A stretch of DNA of 64,000 nt, taken from an uncultured Pelagibacteraceae bacterium. GTDB lineage: Bacteria > Pseudomonadota > Alphaproteobacteria > Pelagibacterales > AG-422-B15. Location of the stretch: the NCBI GenBank assembly GCA_902523535.1, contig CABYZQ010000005.1:5012-69011 (forward strand), read 5' to 3'. The notes under the pieces were generated by a model. The model did not search any database. It was not told the DNA's origin and worked only from the letters and a program-made list of their open reading frames with translations. Shown here in pieces: positions 1 through 52,481 of the stretch. The number at the start of each line of letters is the position of its first letter. The first letter of the stretch is position 1. The position numbers and the translations under genes were made by a program.

Positions 1-402
1 GCCCCCCATGAAATGAAAATTCTGAGCGGCAATTGTTACATTCAAATTATCTATTTTACCAAACCCGATCAAAAAGCAATCATCCATATCTGTTTTAGAG
101 CGAGCCTCATTAAACCTTTCTTTGTATGTTTTGAGAGCTTTGAAATTTAATGGGTCACTAAAACCTGAGGGATATTTAATTTCCTCAAAAACTCCACCAT
201 CAAAAAGACCTTTAAACCTAGTACGGGGATGAATTTGTAAATGCTCATCGCAATTGGGGCATACAAATAATGTTGACTCCAGATCACTTGAATAAAGCAT
301 AGTTTGGCACTGTGGACATTTAATCCAGGAATTCTCTGCGATATCTAGACTTTTCTTCTTACGTGGAAAAACTTTTGATATTGTTCTGGTAAGCCAATTC
401 AT
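1..402 (-). CDS. accD: Acetyl-CoA carboxylase carboxyltransferase beta subunit, 5' part (runs off the window start)
   Basis: Manual translation from ATG at 402: MNWLTRTISK...WIKCPQCQTMLY...VCPNCDEH...NFHFMGG (zinc finger and MGG motif); ATGA overlap with the trpA stop. Confidence 0.95.
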   Translation of the reverse strand, partial: MNWLTRTISKVFPRKKKSLDIAENSWIKCPQCQTMLYSSDLESTLFVCPNCDEHLQIHPRTRFKGLFDGGVFEEIKYPSGFSDPLNFKALKTYKERFNEARSKTDMDDCFLIGFGKIDNLNVTIAAQNFHFMGG

Positions 403-1193
403 GATTTCAATTTATTTGTAAGTTTTTTAACCATTGCACCAATATTGGTAGCTGGATTCTGTCCCTCATTCACTGACTTAGATATTTCCCTGCATAAAGC
501 AGATCCTACAACACAAGCGTCAGTGTCCTTAAAGTCTGCAATTGTTTCTTCAGTGATACCGAATCCGATAATGCATTTTTTCTCAGGTGCTATTGTCTTA
601 ATTAAATTAAACCTGTCCTTTATTTCATTTGGACTCACTTTTAATTTTTGCCCAGTGGTTGATAACATAGAAATATAATAAACAACATCATGAGCATCGT
701 TCAAAATTAATTTTAACCTTTCCTCATTTGTTGTAGGACAAAGTAGTTGAATGAAATCTATATTATTGTTTTTACATTTAGCTGCAAAATTAAGGTTAAG
801 AGGCCATGGCCAATCCACACAAATAATTCCAGCTACCTTGCTCTCTACACACTTGCTTAAAAAACTATCTTCACCGTATGACATTATTTTATTTTGATAA
901 GTCATTATGATTACATTTGTATCAAACTCATCTCTTAATGTTTTAATTATATCAAATACGTCATCTGTTTTTATGCCATTAGAAAGAGCTCTGTACGTAC
1001 CATCTTGAATTGCCCCTCCATCACCAATATTCGCACCGTGACCTAAACCACACTCAATAATATCAACACCTGATTGGGCTATTTCCCTGAAAATTTCAAG
1101 AGAAGTCTCTTTGTTTGGATCTCCACCTACTGTATAAGTTAATAAAGCTGCATTACTTTGATGAAAAGCATTTAATAGCGGCGATCCAGTCAT
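399..1193 (-). CDS. trpA: Tryptophan synthase alpha subunit (divergent)
   Basis: TYTVGGDP, DIIE..DG.AIQ, GFGI and VVGSA motifs; directly downstream of trpB. Confidence 0.93.
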   Translation of the reverse strand: MTGSPLLNAFHQSNAALLTYTVGGDPNKETSLEIFREIAQSGVDIIECGLGHGANIGDGGAIQDGTYRALSNGIKTDDVFDIIKTLRDEFDTNVIIMTYQNKIMSYGEDSFLSKCVESKVAGIICVDWPWPLNLNFAAKCKNNNIDFIQLLCPTTNEERLKLILNDAHDVVYYISMLSTTGQKLKVSPNEIKDRFNLIKTIAPEKKCIIGFGITEETIADFKDTDACVVGSALCREISKSVNEGQNPATNIGAMVKKLTNKLKS

Positions 1194-2422
1194 ATCTTAT
1201 ATCCTAAACGTTCAGCTATAATTCTTGAATCTTTCGCGGAGTCTCCGCAAGAGTCAACTACAATGATAGTATCTTTACTTGAAGATGGAGCAATTTTTAT
1301 TGCTTCAGCAAAGGCATGAGAAGGCTCTAATGAAGGACTTACAAAACCTTCCATTCTGCTAACCAATTGAAAAGCATCAATTGCTTCTTCATCAGATGCC
1401 GATGTATACCTAGCTCTTCCAGTTTCTTTAAGAAAACAGTGCAGTGGAGAAACACCTGGATAGTCTAATCCTGCGCTAATAGATGCTGTTTCTTCAATCT
1501 CTCCCTGATTATCTTGAATTACATATTGTGTTGCCCCGTGAAGAACTCCTAAAGGAGAATTGTTAGTAAGAGGGGCTGCATGCATTGAAGACCCTTCAGG
1601 TCCACCAGCTTCTACTCCAATTAATTCAACATTATCATGATCTATCCATTCATTCCAAAACCCAGCTGCAGAGGATCCTCCTCCAACACAGTTAATCAGT
1701 TTCATGTCTTTAGGGATCTCACCAAATTCATCAATCACTTGTTTTTTCATTTCCCGAGAAATTTGCGCAGTAGACCATGCACATATTTTTACAAATATTG
1801 TTGGTCCAACCGTACTGCCAACACACATGTGCGCCTGCTCGTTTTCACTAGTCCACCATCTCATACATTCTGAAACAGCATCCACAAGTGTTTGAGACCC
1901 TGAATCAACAGGAATAACCTCGGCACCATAACTTCTCATTGAAAATACATTGATCGATTGTCGCTCAATATCTTTAGAACCCATAAATATTTTACATTTC
2001 AAATTGAATTTTGCAGCAGCCATACTCAACATCTTTCCTGCATAACCTGCACCTGTATCTCCACCAATATAAGTTTTTCCTAATCTCTTACAGATGAGAC
2101 TATGAACTACGGCGTTATATGCTTTATGTGCTCCACCAGTAGCTTTTGAAACAAGCTTGCAATAAATTTGTGCTCCACCAAGGTGTTTAGTAAGGTTTTC
2201 TAGTTTTATGAAAGGAGTTGGAGCACCTATAAAGTTTTTAAAATAAAAATCTCTCTCAGCAATGAAGGTTTCGTCATTTCTCAGTTTTTCAAACTCTCTA
2301 GTTAATTCCTCAATTGGGTGATTCAAACTTTCTGCAATCTGATTTCCACCAAACTTTCCTCCCCAGTAACCGTTTTCATCATGCTGATCAATAAGTGGAG
2401 TGCCCTTTTGTAATTCGATCAT
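1190..2422 (-). CDS. trpB: Tryptophan synthase beta subunit (divergent active site)
   Basis: GAHK PLP lysine, CVGGGS, SISAGLDYPGV motifs; trpF-trpB-trpA-accD order. Confidence 0.92.
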   Translation of the reverse strand: MIELQKGTPLIDQHDENGYWGGKFGGNQIAESLNHPIEELTREFEKLRNDETFIAERDFYFKNFIGAPTPFIKLENLTKHLGGAQIYCKLVSKATGGAHKAYNAVVHSLICKRLGKTYIGGDTGAGYAGKMLSMAAAKFNLKCKIFMGSKDIERQSINVFSMRSYGAEVIPVDSGSQTLVDAVSECMRWWTSENEQAHMCVGSTVGPTIFVKICAWSTAQISREMKKQVIDEFGEIPKDMKLINCVGGGSSAAGFWNEWIDHDNVELIGVEAGGPEGSSMHAAPLTNNSPLGVLHGATQYVIQDNQGEIEETASISAGLDYPGVSPLHCFLKETGRARYTSASDEEAIDAFQLVSRMEGFVSPSLEPSHAFAEAIKIAPSSSKDTIIVVDSCGDSAKDSRIIAERLGYKI

Positions 2423-3057
2423 ATAATATTTTTTGTTTTATTAATAAATTCGGTAATTAATTGTTTATCTTTTATACCCTCTGAATCCTCAACACCAGAA
2501 CTAACATCAAAATAACTAGTCTTTTTAAGGTTTATAGCTGAGATTATATTGTCTTTATTAAGTCCTCCTGAAAGAAAAAAGTTCTTAGTTATTGATAAAT
2601 TCTCAATTATTTTCCAATCAAATCTATGGCCAGTCCCGCCTTGAACATTAGATTGAGGAGGTGAATCAAGTAAGAAATATTCTACAAATGGTTCATATTT
2701 AACTAATTCATCTAAGTCATTAGAGGAAGAAATTCCAAAGGCTTTAATAATCTTAAAACCAAACTTCAATTTTATTCTTTCGACCATTTCAAGAGTTTCG
2801 TGACCATGTAGTTGAATATATTGAAAACCAATTCTCAATAAATCATCTAATAAATTAACATCTGGATTAACTGTAACAGCAACAGGTATGGTTTGATCTT
2901 TTATTTTAGACAAAATTTCCTTGCAATTTTCAACAGTAATGTTTCTGTGGGATTTTTCATAAAAAATAAACCCTATAAAGCTTGCACCAGCATCAATTGC
3001 ATGCTGTGCAATTTCTTTATTTTTAACACCACAAATTTTAATTTTAAGATCACTCAC
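2419..3057 (-). CDS. trpF: Phosphoribosylanthranilate isomerase
   Basis: KIKICG, QLHG, GGTG..FDW, DVSSGVE motifs. Confidence 0.96.
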   Translation of the reverse strand: MSDLKIKICGVKNKEIAQHAIDAGASFIGFIFYEKSHRNITVENCKEILSKIKDQTIPVAVTVNPDVNLLDDLLRIGFQYIQLHGHETLEMVERIKLKFGFKIIKAFGISSSNDLDELVKYEPFVEYFLLDSPPQSNVQGGTGHRFDWKIIENLSITKNFFLSGGLNKDNIISAINLKKTSYFDVSSGVEDSEGIKDKQLITEFINKTKNII

Positions 3058-3746
3058 GTAATTTCTGAATAAATATTTTCAGCTGCTTTAGCAGGATCTT
3101 TAGCATCTGTTATTGGCCTGCCTACAACTAAAATATCAGCCCCTGCGTCAATCGCTTCCTTTGCTGAAAGTGTTCTTTTTTGATCATTTACTGCATTCTC
3201 TTTACCCCTAATTCCTGGAGAAATTATCTGTAGTTTGCTTTCATGAGTATTTTTTACTTCTGAAATTTCTAGGGGACTACAAACAATGCCATCCATACCA
3301 CAATTGACAGCAAGTTGAGTTAGCTGTTTTACATTCTCATTAACTGATTTCTCAATGCCAATCTCTGAAATTTTTGCATCATTAAAGCTGGTTAGCATAG
3401 TTACACCGATTAATTTAGTTCTACTTTGAAGTTCGTTTTTTGCTTTTACACACTCAGTAATCATTTCCGAGCCACCTGAAAGATGTAAAGTAGTATATTC
3501 TGGTTGAAACTGTAAAATATTGCTAAGCGCTTGTTTTACTGTATTGGGAATATCGTATAATTTTAGATCAATAAAAATCGGAATTTCAAATTTTTTTATT
3601 TTTTCCATTCCCAGAAGACCACATGACGTAAAAAATTCTAATCCTAATTTAATCCCCCCTATATGAGGGGAAATTTGATCAACTAATGCTACTGCCTTAT
3701 CAATATCGCTTGTATCGATAGCACAAAAAATAGGATTATTATTCAA
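3054..3746 (-). CDS. pyrF: Orotidine-5'-phosphate decarboxylase
   Basis: DLKLYDIPNT, VTMLTS, PGIR, DQKR, VVGRPI motifs; TTG start. Confidence 0.97.
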   Translation of the reverse strand: MNNNPIFCAIDTSDIDKAVALVDQISPHIGGIKLGLEFFTSCGLLGMEKIKKFEIPIFIDLKLYDIPNTVKQALSNILQFQPEYTTLHLSGGSEMITECVKAKNELQSRTKLIGVTMLTSFNDAKISEIGIEKSVNENVKQLTQLAVNCGMDGIVCSPLEISEVKNTHESKLQIISPGIRGKENAVNDQKRTLSAKEAIDAGADILVVGRPITDAKDPAKAAENIYSEIT

Positions 3747-3760
3747 AACAAAATTATAGT

Positions 3761-4081
3761 TTAATTTTCTTCTTCTTGTGAAATAGAGCTATTATTTTTT
3801 GAATTTAATTTAAGTCTTAATTCTTTGCCTGTTTTAAATCTTGGAATATACTTTTCATCAACTTGAACTGCTTCTCCAGTTCTTGGATTTCTACCTGTTC
3901 TTTCTCTTCTGTGTTGAACCGAAAATGCTCCAAAGCCCCTTAACTCTACTCGTTTACCTTCAGCTAAAGATTGGGTAATTTCATTGAATATTGTATTTAC
4001 TATTCTTTCTACATCCCGAACAAACAAGTGTGGATTAGCTTCAGTAATATTTTGTATTAGTTTAGATTTTATTAAGCTCAT
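3761..4081 (-). CDS. ihfB: Integration host factor beta subunit
   Basis: [25 protein letters not shown]; follows rpsA. Confidence 0.95.
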
Positions 4082-4135
4082 ACAATAATTATATGATATT
4101 AAGACTTAATGTAAATAATTGAATGTAAAGAATAT

Positions 4136-5833
4136 TTAGTCTTCTTTTTTGTCGCGTCCCAAGGCCTTGCCTAAAATAGCGCCTAAAGATGCACCAGAGT
4201 CTTTAGAGCCATATTTTTCCATTGCTTCACGTTCAGTCGTTTCTTCCATCGTTCGTACAGATAGACTAATTTTATAATTTGATTGATCTATGTTTGTTAT
4301 TGATGCATCAAGTTTATCGTTTTTTGCCCACCTCTCAGGCCTAGCATCAGATTTTCTAAGAGCTAATTCATTTCTTTTAATAATTGATAAAGGACCTTTA
4401 TCACCAACGCGTACTTTCAAACCAAAATCACCAGTTTCTATAACATTGCATGTAACGATATCACCCTTACTTTTATCTTTTAATTCATCAAATGGATTTC
4501 CATCAATTTCTCTTATGGAAAGAGATACTTTATCATTTTCATTTGTAATAATTTTAGCCTTAATATCGTCACCAACTTTATATTTTTTAATCTCTTCCTT
4601 TGGATCCGCATCCCATGAGAGATCTTTACTAAATATTGCTCCGTCTATGTCGCCTTCAAGATTACAGAAAATAATACCATCCTTTATATTAGTTATATTT
4701 ACATCCAATATACTTCCAATGGGATTTGCTTCATTAAATCTATGCCAAGGGTTTGGAGATAACTGCTTTATACCCAGACTTAGTCTTCTTTTTTCGTGAT
4801 CAATTTCTAATATTTGACAATCTACAGCCTGAGATCTTGCATAAAGATTGCCTGGCTTAGAATTTTGCTTTTGGCTCCATGTAAGCATATCTTTATGACA
4901 CAAACCTTCAACCCCGTTCTCAATTTCGATGAATATGCCATAGTCAGTGACATTAGTAACGACCCCTTTAACTTTATCATCTACATTGAATTTTTCTTTA
5001 ACTTGAAGCCAAGGATCATCTTCAAGTTGTTTCATTCCGACCGAAACACGATTTTTTTCTGGATCAACTTTAATTATCTTAACTTTTACTTGCTGATCTA
5101 TTTTTAAGACTTCTGAGGGGTGTCCTATTCTTTTATAAGTTATATCACTACTATGAAGTAGTGAGTCATATCCACCTAGGTCAACGAAAGCTCCATAATC
5201 AGTGATAGCTTTAATTTTGCCTTCTACCACATCTTCGAGTTTTAATTGCAAAAACCTCTCTTCTCTTACTTCTTTATGCATTTCTTCTAAAACAGCTCTG
5301 CGACTTACAACAATGTTATTTCTTTTCAGATCCATCTTTAATATTTTGAACTTTTGAGGAACATCAATTAAATGACTTACATCTCTTACAGGTCTTGTAT
5401 CAATTTGACTGCCAGGTAAGAATGCTGTGACGCCAATTTCACAAGATAATCCTCCCTTAACTTTTCCAGTAATTACTCCTTCAATTAATTCTCCAGCTTC
5501 AAAAGATTTTTCAATTTCAGCCCAAATTTCTTTAGACTTAGCTTTGGAGCGTGAAAGGATGCAGTCTCCATTATGATTTTCAATCTTATCTAAATAAACG
5601 TCAATTTCATCACCAACCTCGAGTTCTTTTTGATCTTTTCGAAATGCAAATTCTCGTTTTGATATTCTACCTTCAACTTTTGCGCCAATATCAACTATGA
5701 CAGCTTCATCTTCAATTTCAGCAATAGTACCTTTGATAATAGTTCCCTCTTTTAATTTTGAGTTACTAATTGATTCAGCTAGGATTGAGTCAAACTCTGT
5801 TAGTTGATTATTATTAATAGACTCTTGATTCAT
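4136..5833 (-). CDS. rpsA: 30S ribosomal protein S1
   Basis: Multiple S1 repeats (AFLPGSQID, DYGAFVDLGG); cmk-rpsA-ihfB order. Confidence 0.97.
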   Translation of the reverse strand: MNQESINNNQLTEFDSILAESISNSKLKEGTIIKGTIAEIEDEAVIVDIGAKVEGRISKREFAFRKDQKELEVGDEIDVYLDKIENHNGDCILSRSKAKSKEIWAEIEKSFEAGELIEGVITGKVKGGLSCEIGVTAFLPGSQIDTRPVRDVSHLIDVPQKFKILKMDLKRNNIVVSRRAVLEEMHKEVREERFLQLKLEDVVEGKIKAITDYGAFVDLGGYDSLLHSSDITYKRIGHPSEVLKIDQQVKVKIIKVDPEKNRVSVGMKQLEDDPWLQVKEKFNVDDKVKGVVTNVTDYGIFIEIENGVEGLCHKDMLTWSQKQNSKPGNLYARSQAVDCQILEIDHEKRRLSLGIKQLSPNPWHRFNEANPIGSILDVNITNIKDGIIFCNLEGDIDGAIFSKDLSWDADPKEEIKKYKVGDDIKAKIITNENDKVSLSIREIDGNPFDELKDKSKGDIVTCNVIETGDFGLKVRVGDKGPLSIIKRNELALRKSDARPERWAKNDKLDASITNIDQSNYKISLSVRTMEETTEREAMEKYGSKDSGASLGAILGKALGRDKKED

Positions 5834-5838
5834 AAAGT

Positions 5839-6474
5839 TTAATTTTTAAATATAATTTTCTTTAATGCATTAAAAGCCTGTTCTATATCAATATAACTGG
5901 TATCTAGCAACACTGAATTTGCAGCTGGCATCAAGGGGGCTATTTTTCTCGTCAAATCCTTTCTATCTCGTGCATTAATTTCGCTGAAAATTCTTTTAAA
6001 GCTTGCTATTTTCCCACTTTTTATAATTTGTTCATATCTTCTTCTTGCTCTGATTTCCGGATCAGCCCAAAGAAAAATTTTATAATCTGCATCAGGAAAG
6101 ATAACTGTCCCAATATCTCTACCCTCAACTATCGCAAATTCACTTCCCCTCCCATATTTTTTTGGAAAGTTTTTTTGGAACATGATTAGTTTACTCCTTA
6201 GTTTTTTCTTTGATGAAATAATGGAAGATAAATTGTCTACTTCACTTGAGTAAAGTTCCTTAGAATCTAACCTATTTAAATCAATGCAGTCTACACACCT
6301 AAGAATATTTTGAATATTATTAGGATCAGACTTTCTTTTTATCAATTCTAATGCTACTGCCCGATATAATCTGCCACTAAATAATATTGGTGATTTATAT
6401 TTTTTAGCTAACTTTTTTGCTAATGTCGATTTTCCAACTGAGGCAGGCCCATCAATTGTTATTATTTTATACAT
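5839..6474 (-). CDS. cmk: Cytidylate kinase
   Basis: ITIDGPASVGKST P-loop, EGRDIGTVIFPDA. Confidence 0.95.
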   Translation of the reverse strand: MYKIITIDGPASVGKSTLAKKLAKKYKSPILFSGRLYRAVALELIKRKSDPNNIQNILRCVDCIDLNRLDSKELYSSEVDNLSSIISSKKKLRSKLIMFQKNFPKKYGRGSEFAIVEGRDIGTVIFPDADYKIFLWADPEIRARRRYEQIIKSGKIASFKRIFSEINARDRKDLTRKIAPLMPAANSVLLDTSYIDIEQAFNALKKIIFKN

Positions 6475-7766
6475 TAATATAATATTGACAGTGTTTCTAA
6501 ATGACTTTTAAAATCTGGATAACTTATTGAAATGCACGACTCATCATCAATGATTAATTTATTTCCATAGAGCAAACTTAAGATCGAGAAAGACATTGCA
6601 ATTCTATGGTCACCGTATGTTTTTATTTTTACTCTATTTGTAATACTAATTTTTTTTGAACCTTTAATAATTATATCATCTTTCTTAGAAATTGCGTGAA
6701 ATCCTATTTTAGAGAGATTACTTATAATACTTTTAATTCGATCACTTTCTTTGTGTCTAAGTTCTGATAATCCTTTCATAGTTGTAAGGCCTTTAGCTTG
6801 AGACGCGGCTACTGAAAGTATTGGATATTCATCAATTAAATAAGGTGATGAAGTTGAACTAATTTTTATTCCTTTAAGCAAGCTATGTATCACATTAATC
6901 TCACCTACATCCTCACCAGATAATGTTTTAGTCTTTTTTATTTTTATTTTTCCGCCCATTTTTTTAAGTACATCAATAAAAGCAATTCTAGTCTTGTTAA
7001 GTGCTATATTTTTAAGTGTAATATTAGACTTTGGAATAATAAGAGCGCCCACTATAAAAAAAGCCGCACTAGATGGATCGCTTGCGACATTAATATTCCT
7101 CGGTTTTATTTCATACGGGCCATTAAGTTCAATTGATGTAGAATTTTTGTTCAGGACCTTTTTCTTAAACTTAACTTTCAAATAATCCATTAGTTTTTCT
7201 GTATGATCTCGTGTATTCCTCTTTTCAATTATTTTTGTTTTGCCCCTTAAATTTAACGCTGACAATATTAACGCAGACTTTACCTGTGCTGATGCTTTTT
7301 GCATAACGTGTTCCATTGGAAGTAAATTCATGTCTCCTTTAATGTGCAATGGCAAAAAGTCCTTTTTTGTGAGTTCAATTTTTGCTCCCATTTTCTCAAG
7401 ATACACTGACAACCTTGACATTGAGCGTTTGCTTAAAGAATTATCTCCAATAAAAGTACACTTTATTGGATTTGATGATACTGCCCCGATCATTAGCCGT
7501 GAAGTAGTTCCGCTATTACCACACTGAAGAGCCTGATTAGGCTGAATATAGCCTCCAGTTCCATTTCCAAACACAAGCCAATTTTTATCTTTTTTCTCAA
7601 TTTTTATCCCTAACTCCCTAAGAATTTTAAGTGTCCGCATCACATCATCTGACTCTAGTAAATTAGCAATTTTAACCTTCCCAGTGCAAAGTGAAGCAAA
7701 GATTAGCGCCCTATGCGAAATGGATTTGTCTCCAGAAATCTTAATTGAACCTTTTAATTTAAACAC
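6474..7766 (-). CDS. aroA: 3-phosphoshikimate 1-carboxyvinyltransferase
   Basis: GDKSISHR, GNSGT, SAQVKSA, KESDR, DHRIAM motifs. Confidence 0.97.
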   Translation of the reverse strand: MFKLKGSIKISGDKSISHRALIFASLCTGKVKIANLLESDDVMRTLKILRELGIKIEKKDKNWLVFGNGTGGYIQPNQALQCGNSGTTSRLMIGAVSSNPIKCTFIGDNSLSKRSMSRLSVYLEKMGAKIELTKKDFLPLHIKGDMNLLPMEHVMQKASAQVKSALILSALNLRGKTKIIEKRNTRDHTEKLMDYLKVKFKKKVLNKNSTSIELNGPYEIKPRNINVASDPSSAAFFIVGALIIPKSNITLKNIALNKTRIAFIDVLKKMGGKIKIKKTKTLSGEDVGEINVIHSLLKGIKISSTSSPYLIDEYPILSVAASQAKGLTTMKGLSELRHKESDRIKSIISNLSKIGFHAISKKDDIIIKGSKKISITNRVKIKTYGDHRIAMSFSILSLLYGNKLIIDDESCISISYPDFKSHLETLSILY

Positions 7767-8232: not shown

Positions 8233-8308
8233 GGGGCTGTAGCTCAGCTGGGAGAGCATCAGCATGGCATGTTGAGGGTCACCGGTTCGATCCCGGTCAG
8301 CTCCACCA
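8233..8308 (+). tRNA. tRNA-Ala (GGC)
   Basis: Cloverleaf GGGGCTG...CAGCTCC-ACCA, anticodon loop ATGGCAT, G3:U70, GGTTCGATC T-arm. Confidence 0.98.
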
Positions 8309-34292: not shown

Positions 34293-34382
34293 GGAGAGGT
34301 GGCCGAGTGGTTGAAGGCGCACGCTTGGAAAGCGTGTATGCGGGTGACCGTATCGTGGGTTCGAATCCCATCCTTTCCGCCA
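34293..34382 (+). tRNA. tRNA-Ser (GGA)
   Basis: GGAGAGG...CCTTTCC-GCCA, CACGC-TTGGAAA-GCGTG anticodon arm, long variable arm; followed by T8. Confidence 0.98.
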
Positions 34383-52320: not shown

Positions 52321-52371
52321 GATTTTATTTATTTAATAAACAACATTTAATGATCGTATGCTACAATATTT

Positions 52372-52463
52372 TGGGAGATTGAGTAGACAAGTTATTCGCC
52401 AATCCGGTCAGGTCTGAAAAGAAGCAGCCGCAACGATGATATTTGGGTTACTTTAATCTCCCA
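52372..52463 (+). ncRNA. ffs: Signal recognition particle 4.5S RNA
   Basis: Core GGTCAGG-TCT-GAAA-AGA-AGCAGCC; terminal stem TGGGAGATT/AATCTCCCA; directly upstream of dnaX. Confidence 0.93.
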
Positions 52464-52481
52464 CAGAATTAATATAAATAG

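Follow-up and report, generated by a model that had tools for sequence, protein, structure and literature searches.

A Pelagibacterales lineage of tryptophan synthase beta subunits with many near-invariant residues replaced, probably still making tryptophan

The tryptophan synthase beta subunit (TrpB) of an uncultured Pelagibacteraceae bacterium has replaced many residues that canonical enzymes conserve. Its gene, trpB, lies in a 64,000-nucleotide stretch of contig CABYZQ010000005.1 (GenBank assembly GCA_902523535.1), which is called the window here. We consider it probable that this protein is the sole TrpB of the organism, that it belongs to a TrpB1 lineage confined, as found here, to the Pelagibacterales (SAR11), and that it makes tryptophan as predicted, with a rebuilt active-site periphery and altered subunit signaling. 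We refer to members of this lineage as SAR11-type TrpB.

Residue numbers are those of E. coli TrpB, which we take to equal Salmonella TrpB numbering throughout. The reference for both alignment and numbering was the E. coli K-12 protein from NC_000913. An initial annotation of the window had listed substitutions in TrpB, all of which were found again by our alignment (Table 1), and it was right that the pyridoxal 5′-phosphate (PLP) lysine, D305 and E350 are kept and that the open reading frame (ORF) is intact within a trpF-trpB-trpA-accD operon. Changes absent from its list are A108G, N89Y, Q94H, A118M, R148S and K167V, and further V201C, Q205T, A229N, G310S, A348S and S351P. K87, H86, T110, R141, N145, D305, E350 and K382 are held in common with canonical TrpB1, and D383 is also retained.

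SAR11-type TrpB proteins were compared as a set of 41 rows, 10 of them duplicates, leaving 31 distinct sequences; L001 (= L002) and the truncated L020 were omitted. K87 and H86 are invariant across all rows, as are T110, R141 and D305, which serve serine binding and closure. Position 109 is Asp in every row and Glu in 59/59 canonical domains, a set chosen by a motif that contains position 109. D109 is always paired with G108, and Y114 accompanies the loss of R148. The phosphate loop reads GGGSS, with its glycines and S235 kept, while N236, found in 100% of canonical domains, has become Ser. The window TrpB carries all marks of the type (GDTGAGYAG, GGGSS, SCGD and V167).

The canonical set was made up of 56 representatives with the motif ETGAGQHG, E. 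coli, and the Pelagibacterales genomes G042 and G043. At positions 109, 114 and 115 this choice is in part circular, and 24 representatives belonging to neither the canonical nor the SAR11 type fall outside it. In this set, 88 positions are at least 90% conserved. The canonical residue is missing from every SAR11-type row at 22 of the 88, and 16 of those 22 are fixed at 100% to one new residue. The window TrpB, roughly 37-45% identical to canonical TrpB1, differs at 25/88 positions, including the catalytic Glu, Q114, H115, N236 and R379; the median across 100 aligned rows is 4. Equally divergent canonical domains, with mismatch of 0.58-0.60 at variable sites, show mismatch of 0.01-0.09 at the conserved sites, whereas SAR11-type rows reach 0.28-0.31 there. 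K167, S377 and S351, being less conserved, are not among the 88; S377C occurs in 3/59 and S351P in 6/59 canonical domains.

Several other TrpB1-like representatives (P0245, P0252, P0268, P0270, P0250, P0258 and P0227) miss 23-31 of the 88 positions, with 31 missing in P0245, 30 in P0252 and 27 in P0268. Since these miss as many sites, non-canonical TrpB1 lineages are not confined to SAR11. P0202 reads AETGAGMAG; its Q114M and H115A also occur in the TrpB of genome G019 described below.

The window TrpB falls in the Pfam PALP family. Its score of 395.2 bits with TIGR00263, the trpB equivalog model, exceeds the cut-off (392.45) by less than 3 bits. The models for TrpB2, which belongs to the same superfamily of fold-type II PLP enzymes, both score far below their cut-offs (TIGR01415, 105.6 against 518.85 bits; PRK12391, 102.9 against 366 bits), and on these scores we reject membership in TrpB2. 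The closest relatives in the PDB are canonical TrpB1 enzymes, led by the reconstructed TrpB of the last bacterial common ancestor (LBCA; 5ey5_B) with an E-value of 2.6e-107. The values for the P. furiosus and Salmonella enzymes are about 1e-98 and 1e-83, and TrpB2 chains reach only about 1e-19. The window protein has the fold family, length and trpB-trpA linkage of canonical TrpB1 (Salmonella and E. coli; P. furiosus, 5dvz; LBCA, 5ey5).

Purifying selection on trpB is strong. Within the genus, the median ratio of non-synonymous to synonymous substitution rates (dN/dS) is 0.27 for trpF, 0.093 for trpA and 0.028 for trpB, the last taken over the 54 pairs out of 153 in which dS is under 1.5. Identity of same-genus proteins to those of the window is 90-99% for TrpB, 71-98% for TrpA and 46-94% for TrpF. 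Among listed matches with open-frame data, in-frame stops appear only in G112 and G150, one TAA each; a short second fragment in G011 has three more. A quick maximum-likelihood tree built from 100 rows groups the 11 SAR11-type rows and the G019 form in a clade with a Shimodaira-Hasegawa-like approximate likelihood ratio (SH-aLRT) support of 100. Its stem measures 0.76 changes per column and the branches inside are short. SAR11-type TrpB went through a burst of change and has hardly altered since. The initial annotation had proposed a distinct TrpB subfamily, not a decaying gene, and had suggested profile, tree and dN/dS comparisons. Both parts of that proposal are supported, the second by the low dN/dS and by the fixation of new residues across the type.

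SAR11-type TrpB is widespread in the order. In a first draw of 40 relatives, 19/24 same-genus genomes gave a TrpB match, 18 of them 90-99% identical to the window protein and one, G019, with a form that is 52-53% identical. In the sister family, 13/16 near-complete genomes carry TrpB proteins 66-70% identical to the window's with the same motifs. These 16 genomes (99-100% complete, mostly single-contig) have one TrpB each; second matches are weak (E-values of about 1e-5 to 1e-7), lie in other ORFs and are taken to be other PLP enzymes. Across order genomes at least 80% complete, a TrpB match at E-values of 1e-30 or lower is present in 287/301 (208/214 of high quality), and the back-translated GDTGAGYAG occurs once each in 241/301 (173/214 of high quality). 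The reversed motif gave 0 matches across the 301. These tallies include the unpublished G297 and G097, both positive; without them the counts are 285/299 for TrpB and 239/299 for the motif. The exact motif was not found in genera g5 (0/2), g9 (0/4) and g10 (0/1), and since some genomes with strong matches lack it, motif variants must exist.

Two family peptide patterns gave 575 confirmed loci in named species-representative genomes. The titles of the best 80 of these all name Pelagibacteraceae, Pelagibacterales, Pelagibacter, Fonsibacter or SAR11 single cells, with HTCC8051 and HIMB1517, two cultured strains, among them. Searching 1.84 billion representatives of 50%-identity clusters gave 7,670 matches. 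Among the matches listed, the sole full-length SAR11-type cluster is P0122 (70% identity), and the next full-length ones are canonical at 45% or less. From the best 150 of the 7,670, 81 representatives with alignments of at least 340 residues were retained; GDTGAGYAG occurs in P0122 alone among these near-full-length sequences and ETGAGQHG in 56/81. The 90%-identity cluster nearest to the window TrpB has 1,087 members. The initial annotation's suggestion of a similar motif in Pelagibacter, perhaps lineage-wide, is thus borne out.

One genome of the window's genus, G019, encodes a TrpB with some of the SAR11-type residues, namely G108, D109, A115, V167, S236, C377 and P351. This protein retains E78, N89, R148 and Q205, and has Met at position 114. 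In the tree its branch point lies below that of all SAR11-type rows, even though G019 itself is of the window's genus. Just three 90%-identity clusters represent this form, with 48, 3 and 3 members. P0342, 54% identical to the G019-form TrpB, is labeled by NCBI as a Candidatus Marinimicrobia metagenome-assembled genome; it is presumably SAR11-type, and the label could reflect a binning error or a transfer.

The partner subunit has changed as well. TrpA keeps E49, D60, T183, G211, G213, G234 and S235, and its loop L2 has gone from PFSDP to GHGAN in the window's genus or PHNTP in the sister family. D56 is lost, P57 is lost in the window's genus, and G181 is Ser. Lys167 of canonical TrpB pairs with alpha Asp56. 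In the SAR11 type, K167V in TrpB faces the L2 change, and S178T or S178V in TrpB pairs with G181S in TrpA. A model of the TrpB-TrpA complex, built with a separate alignment for each subunit, reached an interaction prediction score from aligned errors (ipSAE) of 0.89 in three runs, against 0.00 for the best of three controls. The pass mark for this score is met by 58/80 solved complexes and 2/110 mismatched pairs. The partner has a predicted local distance difference test score (pLDDT) of 88, and the runs share at least 88% of contacts. The predicted interface takes in V180 of TrpB (the K167V site) and TrpA residues 52-59 (loop L2). Tryptophan synthase complexes have already been solved, so the pass may reflect likeness to them.

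The two subunits travel together. Compared with the window's proteins, those of G042, G043 and G051, which belong to the same family, show identities of 43-46% (TrpF), 37-41% (TrpB) and 31-32% (TrpA); in the more distant sister family the values are 27-37% for TrpF, 66-69% for TrpB and 48-52% for TrpA. TrpF follows kinship but TrpB and TrpA do not, so trpB and trpA have been swapped jointly, without a change of place in the operon. Loci L038 and L039 (in G043 and G042) encode a fully canonical TrpB that differs at 1/88 positions, together with another TrpA in the same place in the operon, and the trpBA pair of these two genomes looks like a replacement.

Many of the replaced residues have known roles in Salmonella. 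Glu109 makes a hydrogen bond to indole N1 and stabilizes C-C bond formation, and His115 and Phe306 form the walls of the indole subsite (PMC9512447). In the closed state Gln114 bonds Asn145 and Arg148; with Q114A that state is less stable, and Q114N favors a side reaction that inactivates the enzyme (PMC9512447). PLP N1 accepts a hydrogen bond from Ser377, which Ser351 keeps in place, and Asn236 is part of the phosphate-pocket lining and packs against His86 (PMC11027755). Lys167, Cys170 and Asn171 touch Tyr279 and Phe280, which gate the tunnel (PMC8187860). At the interface, beta Ser178 bonds alpha Gly181 of the conserved GVTG loop, and changes at alpha Asp56 or Pro57 reduce alpha activity in the complex only (PMC6608616). 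In the SAR11 type both partners of several such contacts are changed: Q114Y with R148S or R148A, S377C with S351P, and, between the subunits, positions 167 and 178 of TrpB with the TrpA changes given above.

We propose that four functional modules would have been rebuilt together on the stem branch. One would comprise the indole-activating acid and the indole subsite, with E109D always accompanied by A108G, together with H115A and A118M. Another would be the set of contacts that keeps the enzyme closed (Q114Y with R148S/A). The contacts to PLP N1 and phosphate would form a third (S377C with S351P, and N236S). The last would be the alpha-beta interface, where K167V and S178T of TrpB face the loss of D56 from TrpA (and of P57 in the window's genus) and G181S. 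In such an enzyme, indole delivered by TrpA would still be joined to the aminoacrylate derived from L-serine, on PLP bound at K100 (= E. coli K87). We infer that the replaced residues compensate one another, and the changes are expected to alter kinetics and subunit cross-talk and not the kind of reaction. Altered kinetics or a broader specificity may result.

The view that SAR11-type TrpB is a working tryptophan synthase draws on the single gene copy, an intact pathway, a complete TrpA under selection, the retained serine residues and the physiology of cultured SAR11. The window genome (1.17 Mb in 25 contigs, 84% complete, about 33% G+C) contains one trpB, where the initial annotation had suggested looking for a second, canonical copy, and trpE-G-D-C lie on contig C2 of the same genome. 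From the copy number, this pathway context and SAR11 growth without tryptophan, we infer that the product is still tryptophan. The cultured strain P. ubique HTCC1062 reached 3.5e7 cells/ml on artificial seawater with 10 µM glycine, 500 nM glycine betaine, 500 µM pyruvate, dimethylsulfoniopropionate and vitamins (PMC5069961). According to Kagan et al. 2008, its single trpB falls in the distinct cluster of SAR11 genes and "must be functional" (PMC2395257).

Several points weigh against this interpretation. The TrpB of HTCC1062 could be of the common type or of a rarer second Pelagibacterales type described below, which makes the argument from prototrophy indirect; the common type is more likely, as its motif occurs in 241/301 genomes and the second type in about 20/301. 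TIGR00263 is barely passed (395.2 against 392.45 bits), and in the PDB it is canonical TrpB1 enzymes, not members of the SAR11-type lineage, that match best. A single-chain AlphaFold model from a 10-row alignment is mediocre, with a mean pLDDT of 69.5 and values under 50 at residues 12-29 and 271-327. Four seawater RNA libraries, one from each of four studies, contain contigs with at least 95% identity to the window that cover trpA and trpB, and three of these run across the trpF-trpB junction. Such contigs can come from DNA, so they are at most consistent with expression. Finally, Brzovic et al. 1992 reportedly found E109D to be damaging in the Salmonella enzyme, and normal activity of the SAR11 type therefore depends on assumed compensation.

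A more speculative extension, which we regard as possible but put forward tentatively, is that this enzyme, as the dominant tryptophan synthase of surface seawater, has been naturally rewired. With Asp in place of Glu and with the Q114-R148, K167-alpha D56 and S178-alpha G181 contacts gone, regulation might differ, for example through a beta subunit independent of alpha ligands, and the range of donors or nucleophiles might be broader in a serine-limited cell.

The new residues might instead make no functional difference. By this account, SAR11-type TrpB does just what canonical TrpB does, and its near-neutral changes, each compensated by others, arose through A+T pressure together with a bottleneck when the order originated. 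Many of the changes do go from G+C-rich to A+T-rich codons (R, P, A and G to I, K, N, S, M and Y) in a genome of low G+C content, C377 and P351 occur in some canonical domains, and P0245, P0252 and P0268 miss even more of the 88 positions than does the window TrpB. The second Pelagibacterales type, from the same order and with the same base composition, nevertheless keeps E109, H115 and, in all but G051 of the five genomes checked, Q114; equally divergent canonical domains hold their conserved sites; and mutating the replaced residues in Salmonella affects closure, side reactions and alpha activity (PMC9512447, PMC6608616). We therefore think this account unlikely. Decay or relaxed selection in a streamlined genome is far less credible still, and we reject it on the conservation data. 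The many changed near-invariant sites and the borderline profile score would suit a decaying gene, but the dN/dS of trpB, the near-absence of in-frame stops, new residues fixed across two families, and a TrpB that stays 90-99% identical across the genus while TrpF drops to 46% would not.

The initial annotation proposed changed chemistry, with a different donor or nucleophile specificity. The donor would then be O-phosphoserine, cysteine, O-acetylserine or threonine, or a nucleophile other than indole would be accepted. The indole-activating Glu has indeed become Asp, the H115 wall of the subsite Ala, and Q114, S377 and S351 are all replaced; SAR11 is also called a glycine-serine auxotroph in a title in the reference list of PMC3870248. 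No result here supports a change of donor or nucleophile, and the proposal does not sit well with a sole trpB next to an intact, coupled trpA under purifying selection, with the full upstream pathway including trpE-G-D-C, with the invariance of T110, R141 and D305 (serine binding and site closure), or with a TrpB2 score far under the cut-off. The distribution of serB adds to this. In a set of the window genome and 30 near-complete genomes of the order, serB (phosphoserine phosphatase, TIGR00338) scores over its cut-off in 7/31, with 4/4 in genus g2, 2/2 in g4, 1/1 in g5, 0/3 in g1 (two near-complete genomes and the window's) and 0/21 in g3. SAR11-type TrpB is present in g1, g2, g3 and g4. The type thus occurs with and without serB and does not track phosphoserine supply, and we reject O-phosphoserine as the donor. 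Changed chemistry as a whole seems improbable to us, more so than unchanged function, and a tryptophan-forming enzyme with rebuilt surroundings is the reading that we prefer.

As to serine synthesis itself, the genomes with serB over the cut-off are G025, G026, G033-G036 and G042, and serB was not found in g1 or g3. Its restriction to g2, g4 and g5 makes the phosphoserine pathway patchy within the order. In G025, G026, G033, G035 and G036, and less clearly in G034, serB lies 2-3 kb from a weak serC-like match. TIGR01364 (serC_1) gave nothing over its cut-off in the 31 genomes; it passes in only 4/14 controls and is hence the wrong model here.

That a distinct SAR11 trpB cluster exists is already known (Kagan et al. 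2008, PMC2395257). The trpB_1 cluster of that paper is probably the lineage described here and has the same operon order as the window; it treats SAR11 trpB as a distance cluster only. Its text has no mention of Glu109, E109, Lys87, catalytic or conserved residues, and "active site" appears once, in a general description of the enzyme. We found no description of residue-level remodeling of SAR11 TrpB in the full-text literature, a coverage that leaves out most subscription journals, and no paper in it for E109D together with tryptophan synthase. The Salmonella variants E109D, Q114A and Q114N alter the same positions, but as single changes in a canonical background, whereas the SAR11-type changes come combined.

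A second type of TrpB exists in Pelagibacterales (P0178; genomes G027, G029, G039, G144 and G051). It occupies the same position in trpF-trpB-trpA and shares C377 and P351 with the SAR11 type. It keeps E109, H115, N236, K167 and R379, and Q114 in 4/5 genomes, with Ala in G051. D305 has been lost (to Q, T or N), three residues are deleted near E. coli position 160, and R141 is Leu in G051. These TrpB proteins are 35-37% identical to the window's and come with their own TrpA, 25-31% identical. By E-value alone the second type occurs in about 20/301 genomes of the order, 5 of them confirmed by sequence. In the quick tree it is the sister clade of the SAR11 type (SH-aLRT 91, unstarred). This sisterhood rests on one tree and the shared C377 and P351, and long-branch attraction is possible.

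Tryptophan synthase is the textbook case of substrate channeling and allosteric cross-talk. A conserved natural version that replaces several residues deemed essential at once, with matching changes in TrpA, could serve to test which parts of the Salmonella mechanism are needed. SAR11-type TrpB is likely to be among the most abundant TrpB types in seawater, and it offers a new scaffold for TrpB engineering. It also carries a warning for annotation, as a trpB of this type clears a curated model by less than 3 bits.

Table 1. Positions of the genes and motifs discussed, in window coordinates except for the second-type and G019-form loci, with the basis of each assignment.
Feature	Position	Strand	Basis
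trpB coding sequence, 410 aa, SAR11-type TrpB1	1190..2422	(-)	intact ORF; TIGR00263 score; PDB best match 5ey5_B
GGAHK, residues 96-100: PLP lysine K100 (= E. coli K87) and H86 kept	2123..2137	(-)	alignment
KLVSK for KREDL (R77L, E78V, D79S, L80K)	2144..2158	(-)	alignment
GDTGAGYAG for AETGAGQHG (A108G, E109D, Q114Y, H115A): catalytic acid and carboxylate-binding loop	2036..2062	(-)	alignment
TLVDA: K167V, in TrpA-facing helix	1877..1891	(-)	alignment, complex model
GPTIFV for GPHPYP (H195T, P196I, Y197F, P198V)	1790..1807	(-)	alignment
GGGSS phosphate loop (N236S)	1670..1684	(-)	alignment
GLDYPG: D305 kept	1454..1471	(-)	alignment
SLEPSHA: E350 kept, S351P, A348S	1313..1333	(-)	alignment
SCGDSAKD for LSGRGDKD (S377C, R379D, G380S, D381A; K382, D383 kept)	1229..1252	(-)	alignment
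Conserved N-terminal stretch, TrpB residues 9-15	2378-2398	(-)	low fold-model confidence there
trpA coding sequence, 264 aa	399..1193	(-)	profile matches; catalytic E49, D60, T183 kept
TrpA loop L2, GHGANIGDGG for PFSDPLADGP	1014-1043	(-)	alignment
trpF coding sequence, 212 aa	2419..3057	(-)	profile matches
accD, 5′ part	1..402	(-)	ORF leaves window; name from operon order in PMC2395257 and from the initial annotation
tRNA genes (two) and small signal recognition particle RNA	8233-8305, 34293-34379, 52370-52468	(+)	Rfam
Second-type TrpB locus L033	3935-5122	(+)	checked by sequence (5 genomes)
Second-type TrpB locus L035	4324-5523	(-)	checked by sequence (5 genomes)
Second-type TrpB loci L034, L042, L041			checked by sequence (5 genomes)
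G019-form TrpB (L032)	4159-5379	(+)	

The genes of the operon run in the order trpF-trpB-trpA-accD, and each junction is a 4-nt overlap (ATGA). Upstream of the operon lie pyrF, a gene resembling that for the integration host factor beta subunit, rpsA and cmk. A scan of window positions 1-6500 showed no excess of promoter-like sites (24, where shuffled sequence averaged 26.9) or of terminator-like sites (1, where it averaged 2.6). In the 64-kb window, Rfam showed no leader or riboswitch near the trp operon; its gathering-score matches are just the three RNA genes in Table 1.

TrpB extends about 13 residues beyond the N-terminus of E. coli TrpB. K6, I11, D12, Q13 and H14 are invariant in ten SAR11-type TrpB proteins from both families.

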